64,000 nt of DNA from Eledone cirrhosa (Eukaryota), in NCBI GenBank assembly GCA_964016885.1, contig OZ024743.1:118420001-118484000 (forward strand), given 5' to 3'. Under the pieces are notes generated by a model. That model was given only the letters and a program-made list of their open reading frames with translations. It ran no database searches and was not told where the DNA came from. Shown piece after piece: positions 2,421 through 63,643 of this stretch; positions within the stretch are counted from its first letter, which is position 1, and each line of letters begins with the position of its first letter. The translations under genes and the position numbers were made by a program.

Positions 2421-2514
2421 ATATAATCAAATTCACCCTACGAACATAAGTTGCTTTATACCTTGGACATTTCTACCAAACTATCACCACTATATATATG
2501 TATATATATATAAC

Positions 2515-3680
2515 AAATTCAAAGGGGTATAATTAGACATAGTCACAGATACATATATGACTTTGGCTACCTTTCATGGTGTGGCACAATGAAGAATTAA
2601 TTAAGCAAATAATCATTAATCAGAGCTATATATATATAAAATTGCAGGTTTGAAGAACTATTAGATAAAATATATACAGTATTTTCTCTTCCTAGTCCGT
2701 ATAAATCAACCACATAAAAATCATTTAAACGGGGCTATAAGTTTAAAATGTAACTATGAAGAAATAATAGACAAATGATACAGACTATTTTCCGCGATGT
2801 ACAGCCAGATAAAATTTATCCAGATATTTCTTTTAGCCTGTAGAAATTGACTAGACAAATAATCAACTACAGGGAGTTAGGTACAAAATAGAAGTTTGAA
2901 GAAAAAATGCACATAAACTTTACCAAAATTCCTCTAGTCCCGACCACCGGCGGTTTCGTTCCATTTTTTGGATATACTCTATCTTGGATCTATTCACGAT
3001 GATTCTAGACTAAGTTTTCTATCATGATCCCCGCCAGAGATGAATTCAAAATGGCTAAGAACTATCACGTGGCCAGTGGTCAAGGCAGAACATTTGGGAT
3101 TGGTGCCTGTCGGCGAGTAGGCTGGTTGCTAGAAAGCGCAGCCGGATACTGCCTAAAGCTTTACTCAACCTTACGGGAGTATATATTAAATTCAAAGGGG
3201 TATATGTATATAATTAGACATAGTCACAGATACATATATGAGTTTGGCTACCTTGACGGTATGGCTCAATGAAGAATTAATTAAGCAAATAATCATTAAT
3301 CACAGCTATATATAAAATTGCAAGTTTGAAGAACTATTAGATAAAATATATACAGTATTTCCTCTTCCTAGTCCGTGTAAATCAAACACATAAAAAATCA
3401 TTTAAACGAGGCTATAAGTTTAAAATGTAAAAAACTTAGTCCAGAATCGGAGTGTCTCCTGATGAGTTCCAAGCCTCGTGGATAGATCCAAGATCGGGTA
3501 TATAAAAAAAAAAAATGGAACGAAATCGCCGTTGGTCGGGACTAGAGGAACTTTGGTAAAGTTTATGTGCATATTTTCTTCAAACTTATATTTTGTACCT
3601 AACTCCGTGTAGTTGATTATTTTTTTTATATACCCGATCTTGGATCTATCCACGAGGCTTGGAACTCATCAGGAGACACT
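2515..3680 (-). mobile_element. Non-coding HHR-bearing element: about 673-nt unit, partial tandem copy, inverted 5' segments
   Basis: 2515-2753 repeats directly at 3188-3430. 3431-3620 is an inverted copy of about 2860-3017. 3626-3680 inverts 3452-3505. Abuts (TA)n at 2491-2512. Confidence 0.7.
3454..3542 (+). ncRNA. Type I hammerhead ribozyme
   Basis: gtctc-CTGATGA-gttcca...tggaac-GAAA-tcg(ccgt)tgg-TC-gggac, with all three stems pairing. The minus-strand paralog at 2937-2963 has stem III ACCG(CCGG)TGGT with a palindromic loop. Confidence 0.8.
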
Positions 3681-4332
3681 GTGTGCGTGCGTGTGGATGG
3701 AGAGGAGTCAGAGGGGTGGGGGAGGGGGGCATGTGGATTCCGGAGGCTGAGTGTGTATATGAGTGGGTGCGCACGTGTGTGTTTGTGTTTATACATGGTA
3801 TGGATGTAGGTGGCGTGCTTCGAAAAAAAATGTGAGTGTTTGTTCGTTGGTAAGTTCCTAAGGTAGTTCCGTGTATTGTGCCATGAGTTGTTGGATATTT
3901 TTCATGTTATAGAGTGGATAGCTGGAACGATGAACGGTGGTGTGGAATCCGTTAGTTGTGGTGGTCGGAAGTGGAGAGATGTGGGGTGCGCGCGCACAGG
4001 AAGTGGTCAGAGGGTCAAGGCAGGGTGAAGAGATAGCAGTAGAGGAGGATGATAGGTGGAGAAATGGTCTGTATGTGGTGAGGACTGTGTGTCTGTGTGT
4101 GCGGAGGTGCGGAGATGCGGTGGACAGGGGACAGGATGGGTAGGTGTGAAAGGTGAAGGGGAAGGTAGTGATGTGGGGGGGGATGGGGTGTATATTAGTA
4201 GAGGTGTTAGTGGGATGTGTGTGAAGGGGTGTTGGTGGAGCGAGGAGAGGGAGAGGGAGAGAAAAGATGTTGGGATGGAGGAGGGAGTGTAGTGTACTGG
4301 TGTGTGTGTGTGTGTGTATATATATATATATA

Positions 4333-4522
4333 TATATATATATATATATATATAACAAACAGGGTGTGGTAAGATATCAGGTGGACCATAACGCATTAGA
4401 GTACTCGATACTTGGGTTAGTAGAGCGGGTAATATGAAAAGATTCAGGACCCGAACAGCTCGATCCGAACGTATCTAGCTATCGAAACGGTCGGAGCTCA
4501 GCCGTCGGGGTCCTGAATATTT
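4333..4522 (+). mobile_element. Short (TA)n-embedded element with decayed HHR; homologs at 36647-36795 (+) and 32703-32770 (-)
   Basis: Shared CAGGTGGACCATAACGCA..AGAGTACTC. Stem I ttcaggaccc/gggtcctgaa and GAAAcgg...ccgTC are present, but the CTGAnGA box is degenerate. Confidence 0.6.
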
Positions 4523-5040
4523 ATATATATATATATATATATTTTTTTTTTCCTACAGAACAACAACTGTTTTATTTGAAACAGTTCTAGTCCTGTAGAA
4601 TCCATTTCTATATTTAAAATATTATACTCTGCTATGTATTGAGTACCTTACATATTGTGGTTATGCCCGATTGAACCCCGAGGACACACACACACACACA
4701 CACACACCCATATATATATATATATACATACACACACACATATATATATATATATATATATATATATATATATATATATATATCAAAAGTAAGTGTTCAA
4801 ACCAATCAAGAAAGCGAGGTAAGAGATTAGTTGTGAGAATTATAAGCCGCTAGTGAAGAGGACAGCGTGCTCAATGCGCATTAAGTGCAAAAGAAGCGAA
4901 CAGTGAAACTAAGCAAAAGAAGTATAAGTCATGCCAATAGAGTATAGGCAGAGCATAAATATAAAAATTGAATAGTCTGTTGAATAATGGTCTACTAATC
5001 AGTTTCAAACTGATTCCATACTAATTTATATATATATATA

Positions 5041-5290
5041 ACCAAAGATTAATATCGTTCATTGATTACTCAATGAATATAGTTTTACAATAGATTAAAA
5101 GCACTCTACAATGAAGTTTTCTGGAGTTATTAATATTATTCAAAATATTAATAAATGAAGACTTTCACATTATCAAAATATATGTTTTATTATATATATT
5201 TCGAAGGTACTGTGCTGTTTTTTCAGTACGTTGTCGTCAGATAAAATACATGAATTGGTGTATGACATACCTCAACGGTCTTGATGGTTT
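5041..5290 (-). mobile_element. PLE-type terminal (pLTR-like) fragment with type I HHR at 5185-5246; homologs at 16860-17030 and 61880-62223
   Basis: Minus strand reads ttttat-CTGACGA-caacgtactg...cagtaccttc-GAAA-tatata-TA-ataaaa. The family end ATTAATCTTTGGTTATA(TA)n is shared by all copies. Confidence 0.7.
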
Positions 5291-61879: not shown

Positions 61880-62223
61880 TATTCAAAAAGTTAATAAATG
61901 AAAAATATTCTCATAATCAAAATATATATTTTATTATACATATTTCAAAGGTACAATGGTGGCAGGCTGCCAATACTGGAATGGAAAAATCAAAATCGTA
62001 GCGGTGTGTCACATATCAAATCATATATTTTGTCTGATGAAGACGTACTTAAAAACACCATTTGTACCTTTGCAATATGTATCATAAAATATATATTTTG
62101 ATTATGAGAATATTATTCATTTATTATCATTTTGAATAATATTAAAAACTCCAGGAAAATCTCCGTTGAGTGCTTCTAATATTGTATTTGTTGAGTAATC
62201 AACGAACCATATTAATCTTTGGT
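61880..62223 (+). mobile_element. pLTR-like fragment with HHR (62023-62093, GAAA changed to GCAA) and an inverted 5' copy
   Basis: tattttgt-CTGATGA-agacgtac..gtaccttt-GCAA-tatgta-TC-ataaaata. The inverted copy at 61895-61961 retains GAAA. Confidence 0.7.
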
Positions 62224-63129
62224 TATATATATATATATATATATATATATATATATATATATATATATATATATATATATATATATATATATATATATTC
62301 ATGTGTGAGTCGCTTCTATCTTTTATAATTTATTTCATATTAAAAAATGAAATAAATTATAAAAGATACACATATGAATATTTATTTCATTTTTTAATAA
62401 ATATTTTTTCTCTTTGATATTTTTTTTATAAATATTTTTTCTATTTGATATATATTTATCCTTATCGAGCCCTCTTTGGATTTTAGTCTTCACATTTATT
62501 ATTATTATTATATATATATAGAGAGAGAGAGAGAAAGAGAGAGAGAGACAGAGAGAGAGAGGGAGTGAGAGAGAGAGAGAGAGAGAGAGAGAGAGAGAGA
62601 GAGACAGAGAGAGAGAGAGAGAGAGAGAGAGAGAGAGAGAGAGAGAGAGCGAATAAGAAGTCAGATTTGCAAATTGTAATGAAACTTTATTGCATGTTAC
62701 AACTGTTTCGATATTGATTGTCCTCGGGTATCATCAGACGATCGGATCCCGACACTTAATCGATACGTCTTCAGATATGCGAGTTTACATACTTGGGTGG
62801 TCCCATCCAAACACTTTCTCTCTCTCTCTCTCTCTCTCTCTCTCTCTATATATATATATATATATATATATATATATATATATATATATATATATATATA
62901 TATATATATATAATTAAGTTAAAGTGTACATCTACATATGTATACGGAAGTATTAGTATGCATATAAATACACACATGTATACATATGTACATGTACTCA
63001 GCTTTTCACTAGACACTTTACAGTGAGTGTCAGCTAGTCTGTATGTAACCACACAGGCGGACCGGGTTTTAGAGTCATACGAGTTTTCAAGGAAACACAT
63101 TTCCTCTATTCTCCAGCGGGCCAGACAGG

Positions 63130-63174
63130 AATATTGGACTAGTTTCGATGTTATTACATCTCATCAGCAATATT
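63130..63174 (-). ncRNA. Type I minimal hammerhead ribozyme, intact (unit 1)
   Basis: aatattg-CTGATGA-gatgt-aata-acatc-GAAA-ctag-TC-caatatt, with palindromic ACTAGT stem III and a GUC site. Confidence 0.92.
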
Positions 63175-63598
63175 TACCCATCTTCCGGCTTCTCTGGAGA
63201 ATTGTAAAAGCACATATCGTTATATGCTTTTTCTATGAAAATTAGTAGTGGGTAGACTAATTTGCATAGAACGTGAGTCATTGTACGCACCGGTTCAGCG
63301 GAAACGATAAAAACAAATAACGAAACGAAATTAAATTTCGTTTCGCTTCTAACTCACTTTTGTATGACTGACGCTTAAACAATTAAGTTAAAGTGTACAT
63401 CTACATATGTATACGGAAGTATTAGTATGCATATAAATACACACATGTATACATATGTACATGTACTCAGCTTTTCACTAGACACTTTACAGTGAGTGTC
63501 AGCTAGTCTGTATGTAACCACACAGGCGGACCGGGTTTTAGAGTCATACGAGTTTTCAAGGAAACACATTTCCTCTATTCTCCAGAGGGCCAGACAGG

Positions 63599-63643
63599 AA
63601 TATTGGACTAGTTTCGATGTTATTACATCTCATCAGCAATATT
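63599..63643 (-). ncRNA. Type I minimal hammerhead ribozyme, intact (unit 2)
   Basis: Identical to 63130-63174 at +469. Confidence 0.92.

Follow-up and report, generated by a model that had tools for sequence, protein, structure and literature searches.

Penelope-like element ends in (TA)n tracts and permuted hammerhead-like motifs in a 64-kb window of the Eledone cirrhosa genome

Introduction

Why do hammerhead ribozyme (HHR) motifs from many distinct families point toward (TA)n tracts in one stretch of the Eledone cirrhosa genome? The question arises from a window of 64,000 nucleotides (contig OZ024743.1 of assembly GCA_964016885.1, positions 118,420,001 to 118,484,000), for which a preliminary description listed 15 HHR motifs, each with a (TA)n tract to its 3' side, and proposed that the tracts are priming and landing sites of Penelope-like elements (PLEs) and retrozymes that insertion may also lengthen. 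The window has a G+C content of 35% and contains remnants of long interspersed nuclear elements (LINEs), of a family resembling short interspersed nuclear elements (SINEs) and of PLEs, together with 136 TA tracts, each 10 nt or longer, that add up to 3616 bases. For a random position, the chance of meeting such a tract within 430 nt in one given direction is 41%. We consider it probable that the window holds PLE ends that landed in (TA)n, and that four of the motifs are permuted hammerhead-like folds, most likely of the Naiad type of PLE and capable of cleavage. The tract rule is real and known; the rearranged motif is what looks new.

Polarity of hammerheads toward (TA)n

All 15 listed motifs do have a tract on the 3' side, at distances of 42 to 299 nt, and 6 of the 15 have one within 430 nt on the 5' side. 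Because this set had been picked knowing the answer, the test was redone on 15 HHRs defined by scanners that we wrote with reversed, complemented and shuffled controls; the set omits three weak hairpin-like matches (63888, 63837 and 27367) and does not include the motif at 32447. A tract lies within 430 nt to the 3' side in 12 of these 15 HHRs (p = 0.0025) and to the 5' side in 4 (p = 0.92), and the 3' tract is the closer one in 13. With one motif counted per insertion, from a hand-made list, the fractions are 19/21 for the 3' side and 9/21 for the 5' side. The polarity, which the preliminary description had left to a statistical test, is beyond chance, though not a strict rule. "Each" was too strong, since two unlisted motifs, 3459 and 22351, have no 3' tract within 430 nt and 63636 belongs to the upstream unit of a tandem. 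Counting against the rule are these two exceptions and a third at 62737, as well as its sensitivity to the tract threshold: at 12 nt the result weakens to 10/15, with the 3' tract closer in 11/15 (p = 0.059).

The polarity follows from the position of HHRs near PLE 3' ends: with 5' ends cut at random, an excess of tracts is expected on the 3' side and none on the 5' side. Neptune, Naiad and Hydra PLEs are published as inserting preferentially into (TA)n, a preference also listed for all five cephalopod Naiads (Craig et al. 2021, PMC8557442). The rule is therefore known PLE biology, already explained and cleanly illustrated in this window.

Element ends and probable landing in (TA)n

Element ends were defined by homology between copies, with the SINE-like family as a control. 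Among 22 ends of HHR/PLE families, 14 lie within 5 nt of a TA tract, where the background is 1.2%, and 16 lie within 20 nt; the corresponding count for SINE-like ends is 1/11 at either distance (Fisher p = 0.0007 at 20 nt). In a check for a masking artefact in the definition of ends, homology stays absent past the tracts, the single high score being TA against TA. Within an inverted pair the arms break off at separate element positions, and each of them abuts TA. TA flanks twelve hand-picked units left and right (a thirteenth row, an RTE, is bordered by TC on one of its sides), and the tracts at 17022, 58459 and 10397 are each common to two elements that meet head-to-head. These junctions support the proposal that the tracts are landing sites, and the tracts behave as insertion targets.

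Could dense TA simply gather all mobile DNA, with a list picked to fit? The 41% background, the contact with TA of one of two RTE LINE 3' ends and of a LINE remnant at 5930, and the partial dependence of sites in tandem and inverted pairs would all be compatible with this. However, the scanner-defined set retains the 3' excess with no 5' excess, and the SINE-like ends behave differently from the HHR/PLE ends, so that an absence of targeting is extremely unlikely and already largely refuted in the window. It is also very unlikely that (TA)n is an element-encoded 3' tail, comparable to the short repeat tails of RTE LINEs, rather than a target. Three family B copies (those ending at 62223 and 17021 and the copy at 5041-5285) do halt at the same base before TA; against this, inverted arms end on TA at different element points, 5'-truncated ends also meet TA, including a break inside a motif at 53632, and tracts are absent from both ends of the unit carrying 22351.

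The suggestion that insertion also lengthens the tracts fared less clearly. Unclustered tracts at element ends are longer than others (34 versus 16 nt, p = 0.015), but the clustered difference (median 34 versus 19 nt) is not significant (p = 0.13), and the greater length could reflect longer tracts being targeted more often, which would look identical. The reads, which skip the junction at 52966-53009, reveal no empty site. An alternative in which tracts are born or grown at element ends, by landing at short TA- or AT-rich nicks followed by slippage or re-priming expansion, can be entertained tentatively. It would suit the ends that lie on only (TA)3-4 (3188, 53531 and about 10176) and the near-identical tandem at 62913, which sits on (TA)33 where other copies sit on (TA)6-8.

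Landing in existing tracts, the reading that we prefer, would make the window a graveyard of 5'-truncated PLE ends from many families. A PLE protein would nick (TA)n on either strand, and the freed end would prime reverse transcription near the 3' end of the RNA; this step we infer from a published in vitro study of a single PLE, and the junction pattern fits it. A second nick could prime an inverted second copy, and copying would halt at variable 5' points. An HHR some 40-300 nt inside the 3' end would then point at the tract without choosing the site. For the Poseidon PLE of the green anole, in vitro experiments showed nicks in either strand of AT-rich DNA and an internal start of reverse transcription on the RNA template (Frangieh et al. 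2024, PMC11167929), which would yield junctions like those of the window; this PLE differs in preferring the motif ATT over (TA)n. The PLEs described in the available text of PMC8557442 share with those of the window insertion in (TA)n, 5' truncation, partial tandems, inverted arms and a tail at one end.

Hammerhead-like motifs with a permuted strand order

Four of the listed motifs, 10285(+), 30941(+), 32447(+) and 53067(-), have a permuted wiring that had escaped the preliminary description. They form two families with no helix letters in common, and in all four copies the strands run in the order II, P4, III'/UH/I', II'/GAAA/III, P4', I/CUGAnGA. A scan of six block orders assigns 10285, 30941 and 53067 to S-G-C, and 32447 comes from a four-helix scan; each has the S-G-C order with an intact core and stems I and III. 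In the window copies, the strand before GAAA forms 5-6 bp with a partner lying some 40 nt upstream; this partner is followed by P4, the extra helix that joins stems I and II, with 4-6 bp. The helices of the family 1 motif are GGCGC/GCGCC (stem II), CCCGA/TCGGG (P4), CCGATG/CATCGG (stem III) and CTGTAA/TTACAG (stem I). Strand II' pairs over 5-7 bp with the upstream strand in all eight motifs tested, and with the bases after CUGAnGA over only 1-2 bp in the four window copies and 2-4 bp in four metagenome copies described below.

The four copies are the top four of the four-helix scan, scoring 59 (10285), 50 (30941), 47 (53067) and 42 (32447), where the maxima of 30 shuffles are all at most 47. 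At one stem II pair, two of the family 2 copies have C-G where the third has T-A. The family of the unit at 52995-53632 is high-copy in sequencing runs X1, X2, X6 and X7, and the stretch with this copy and the 52862 unit has 5857-6815 read records per run, with the motif deeply covered. A P4 pair broken at 53076 is restored by the base present in nearly all reads of relatives, and among 40 of the 180 read-variant rows none affects the core, stem I or stem III.

In their S-G-C order, short stem I'-to-II' linker, intact core and extra helix between the far sides of stems I and II, the motifs resemble type SGC (Eckert et al. 2023, PMC10085705). They differ in that stem II and the extra helix are supplied by the strand 5' of the cleavage block, leaving a break in the chain between CUGAnGA and stem II, and the bases right after CUGAnGA do not provide stem II. 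Moving the last two strands of SGC to the front puts the chain ends between core A9 and stem II, and the order is that of a circular permutation of type SGC opened at that point. Judged by sequence, the motifs are SGC-like non-circularly permuted HHRs outside types I-III that are predicted to cleave; they would work like SGC and are not filed as SGC. The window copies lie in animal genomic repeats, whereas the available text of PMC10085705 reports SGC from metatranscriptomes, with none in the genome of any known organism; for CSG, two metagenome sequences are the only published source in the available texts. Types II, III, CSG and GCS give nothing above shuffle level in the window.

Similar motifs in Naiads and metagenomes

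Naiads are reported in PMC8557442 to lack canonical HHRs; core halves 35-50 nt apart are flagged there as lying "on either side", and ten Naiad consensi are marked "HHR_core" and eight "HHR_half_core". We sampled the supplement around four core words (60/62, 19/23, 19/25 and 19/43 matches) and covered one whole part; words broken across line ends escape this sampling. Read by eye, the four-helix order found in the window stands at the 3' end of 11 of the 54 published Naiad consensi: three from Acropora, two from Octopus, one from Euprymna, one from a ctenophore (with a stem I of only 2 bp) and four from file parts 9, 12, 12 and 19. Also by eye, type CSG folds are complete in six consensi of the nematode part of File S5, and part 17 holds one plain SGC fold; the sampled passages on the other Naiad consensi contain no such fold. 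Where that source describes Naiads as lacking canonical HHRs, we thus propose complete permuted folds for many of them. On balance we favor the view that Naiads carry permuted HHRs, predicted to cleave, of type CSG in nematodes and with a split stem II in cnidarian, ctenophore, ostracod and cephalopod Naiads. Families 1 and 2, in which a tract of at least 20 nt lies just 3' of the motif in four of five copies and the fifth is on (AT)3, are most likely Naiad-type 3' ends.

A search pattern of stem II and core words only matched at least 119 metagenome loci and 11 viral loci. Among the at least 130 matches listed, all four helices occur in 13 loci, all of a single family found in two assemblies; another two members of this family are too decayed for the scan, one unrelated match scores 44, the rest fail, and none of the 11 matches in viral contigs has four helices. 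The 15 metagenome copies are dispersed, truncated repeat ends that closely resemble the Acropora Naiad 3' end. They lie outside TA tracts, and Acropora Naiads are listed without TA-tract insertion in PMC8557442. Paired cells make up 92.6% in the 15 members, compared with 25-45% for slid controls, and three pairs have changed on both sides, in stem I and P4, with two of these changes in the 10-bp P4. A whole-sequence alignment of the three families ignores structure.

Several points weigh against this interpretation. (i) PMC10085705 assumes CUGAnGA and stem II to be contiguous. (ii) The four-helix scan was designed after the four copies had been seen, and a relaxed core raises the shuffle maxima to 41-53, which overlaps family 2. 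(iii) The stem II register of family 2 is ambiguous, a second register being possible. (iv) Pseudoknot-free folding gives z values of -0.96 to +0.38, with no excess stability and mostly other helices. (v) The reads exclude the TA junction at 52966-53009, so that genome-wide 3' ends are outside their view. (vi) The correspondence across families was read by eye rather than aligned by program. (vii) The metagenome pattern came partly from an Acropora consensus, so finding relatives of that consensus is not independent. (viii) In the metagenome family stem II has no two-sided change, and the count of two-sided pairs equals that of shuffles (245/500). (ix) A six-frame motif scan of the window found no Naiad open reading frame (ORF) beside families 1 and 2, and a tblastn search of 11 reverse transcriptase (RT) proteins against the 15 metagenome loci gave nothing at E 0.1.

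Predicted cleavage and its significance

Would the rearranged motif cleave, or is it a conserved HHR-derived 3' structure with another role, such as a protein binding or priming site? The second alternative is possible but rather doubtful. It would be in keeping with a backbone that leaves the core at A9, which PMC10085705 assumes to be impossible, and with the anole PLE, which inserts in vitro without need for HHR cleavage (PMC11167929). On the other side, CUGAnGA, GAAA and the cleavage-site U are invariant in 15/15 metagenome copies and intact in 4/4 window copies; PLE HHRs commonly carry one additional base between positions 9 and 10.1 (Cervera and de la Pena 2014, PMC4209133), which suggests that this junction is tolerant; and the SGC and CSG forms, as published, do cleave. 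We therefore prefer cleavage, in which case the permuted fold would most likely cut tandem transcripts in the manner assumed for the canonical HHR.

If true, permuted folds would account for the reported absence of HHRs from Naiads, a clade that dominates many invertebrate genomes, and would shift non-circularly permuted ribozymes from uncultured RNA to high-copy animal DNA. The assumption that CUGAnGA and stem II are contiguous would be broken, and, if the motif cleaves, the split-stem-II wiring would fall outside the six proposed block orders. Earlier HHR descriptors could not have detected such wirings, and a new descriptor would allow whole genomes to be re-scanned. Our searches of open-access texts, the supplements of PMC10085705 aside, list no report of permuted HHRs in Naiads or animal genomes. 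In its available text, PMC13725137 refers to Eckert 2023 and Forgia 2023 alone when it comes to other HHR architectures, PMC4209133 covers type I only, leaving the four permuted window motifs outside, ribozymes go unmentioned in the available part of a 2026 Octopus repeat annotation, and a study of non-LTR (non-long terminal repeat) retrozymes (bioRxiv 10.64898/2026.07.22.740005) describes a search with type I models only.

Type I hammerheads and relics

The remaining members of the original list are a mixed set. Five are intact type I HHRs with CUGAnGA, GAAA and UH in this order and stems I-III (cores 5240(-), 19884(+), 49025(+), 58363(+) and 63167(-)). Scanner scores for 5240 and 58363 are low (18-21) and lie within the noise; the former is supported by its homologue at 62034(+), a type I HHR with a single core change, GCAA replacing GAAA. 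This is one of two variants; the other, 52862(-), is a minimal HHR with a U3/A8 core variant known from PLE HHRs (PMC4209133), and about 95% of the X1 read depth has a base that makes its stem III palindromic. Three further entries are relics. CUGAnGA is missing from 2937, whose sister copy at 3459 is intact; 19250, inside a PLE pseudo-LTR, carries two core changes; and 9321 has both core halves and stem II with stem I unformed and terminates a GIY-YIG remnant. One entry, 32029, was rejected because it shows no hammerhead fold in any block order. Six HHR motifs were absent from the list: 3459(+), 22351(-), 35000(-), 35450(+), 35903(-) and 63636(-). Rfam returns no match at gathering score across the window; below threshold, among 150 of the 332 weaker rows, only 63167 and 63636 match a hammerhead family (HH9, 31.8 bits, cut-off 52).

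The type I HHRs of PLEs described in PMC4209133 likewise have a palindromic short stem III and the U3/A8 variant, are mostly truncated single copies, and form opposite-strand pairs a few hundred bases apart. The non-LTR retrozymes of the bioRxiv study are matched by the tandem at 62913-63860, which has a type I HHR in each unit; this tandem is the only one in the window, where most units are monomers or inverted pairs.

Elements of the window

The coordinates of the elements are collected in Table 1. The remnant at 17039-19544 has the RT-then-GIY-YIG order of an EN+ PLE (RVT_1, E = 1.4e-9; GIY-YIG, E = 6.3e-5; Pfam), and most other units have no ORF. Its endonuclease is C-terminal, so it is not a Naiad. 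It is bounded by inverted pseudo-LTRs (17038-17294 and 19240-19497) that are 95% alike and contain relic HHRs, and a 47-nt tail is present on the right side only; this layout matches the Fig. 2 legend of PMC8557442. Protein relatives of its RT are 24-41% identical, and a search with this RT among longer proteins gave 11 matches, with the endonuclease after the RT in all three inspected. The remnant at 56292-57395, in which no HHR was found, has a Hydra-like Cys/His spacing when compared by eye with the description in PMC8557442.

Table 1 Elements and motifs of the window (positions in the window) and loci of the metagenome family
Feature	Position	Strand	Remarks
Permuted family 1 motif	10217-10291	+	Intact core, predicted cut after 10241; (TA)16 at 10397
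Permuted family 2 copy	30811-31011	+	Motif 30869-30947, predicted cut after 30897; TA both sides
Permuted family 2 copy, more decayed	32328-32505	+	Motif 32375-32453; (AT)17 at 32506
Permuted family 2 unit	52995-53632	-	Motif 53061-53131; TA both ends; partial tandem copy 53531-53632 precedes motif, broken inside motif
PLE remnant	17039-19544	+	RT 17214-18575, GIY-YIG 18179-18841; TA both sides
Intact type I HHR	19880-19955	+	(TA)23 at 20032
Tandem, two 469-nt units, 99% alike	62913-63860	-	Type I HHR in each (63167, 63636); 3' end abuts (TA)33; inverted arm extends to window end
Family B copy	5041-5285	-	Minimal type I HHR 5240; 3' end on (TA)7
Family B inverted pair	61880-62223	+	HHR 62034; arms end on TA at different element points
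Unit with minimal type I HHR 49025	48887-49122	+	TA both sides
Inverted pair	34759-35579		Type I HHRs 35000(-), 35450(+); both arms on TA
High-copy unit	52770-52974	-	U3/A8 minimal HHR, core 52862-52856; TA both sides
Minimal type I HHR 58363	58355-58458	+	(TA)7 common with head-to-head unit 58474-58765
Family A nest	2515-3680		Relic 2937(-) on (TA)6; intact HHR 3459(+), whose arm terminates on (TG)n (exception)
Inverted unit	22254-22674		Intact type I HHR 22351(-); TA at neither end (exception)
Relic type I HHR family	4355-4521	+	Second copy 36649-36794; both copies TA both sides
PLE remnant with GIY-YIG traces	8502-9362	+	Ends in 9321 motif; TA both sides
PLE endonuclease remnant	56292-57395	+	TA both sides
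Inverted-repeat unit	31986-32213		Adjoins (AT)27; had been listed as HHR 32029
Relic type I HHR	62690-62737	-	3' on (CT)n, 5' on (TC)15(TA)33: opposite polarity
Split-stem-II metagenome family	L002, L021, L037, L041, L046, L063, L068, L073, L075, L080, L081, L096, L101, L112, L114

Reads of the family at 52770-52940 show many opposite-strand joints, which suggests that inverted pairs are common among copies elsewhere. Further inverted-repeat units lie at 20080-20296, 48589-48822, 47364-47559, 36983-37059 and 35766-36007, the last of which contains the HHR at 35903(-), with one core change; several adjoin TA, and units such as 20080-20296 may be PLE ends so short that no HHR is left, or miniature inverted-repeat transposable elements. 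A 96% perfect inverted repeat at 37055-37254 has its TA tract in the center, the opposite of the usual layout.

The SINE-like family comprises 11 copies or pieces with (ATT)-type tails, at 597-2420, 20612-20790, 25275-25357, 54391-54839 and 59357-59419. Two stretches without Pfam match, at 10430-10871 and 23607-24113, we take to be pieces of RTE-like LINEs; both carry a (TAGA)n-type tail, and the first meets permuted family 1 head-to-head at the common tract 10397. Decayed RT-like frames at 58905-60600, into which the SINE piece at 59357 is inserted, and a 114-amino-acid frame at 15055-15399(-) that resembles a piece of a transposon-derived protein likewise have no match in Pfam. The arms of an older inverted repeat, at 61688-61737 and 62299-62348, enclose the family B inverted pair.

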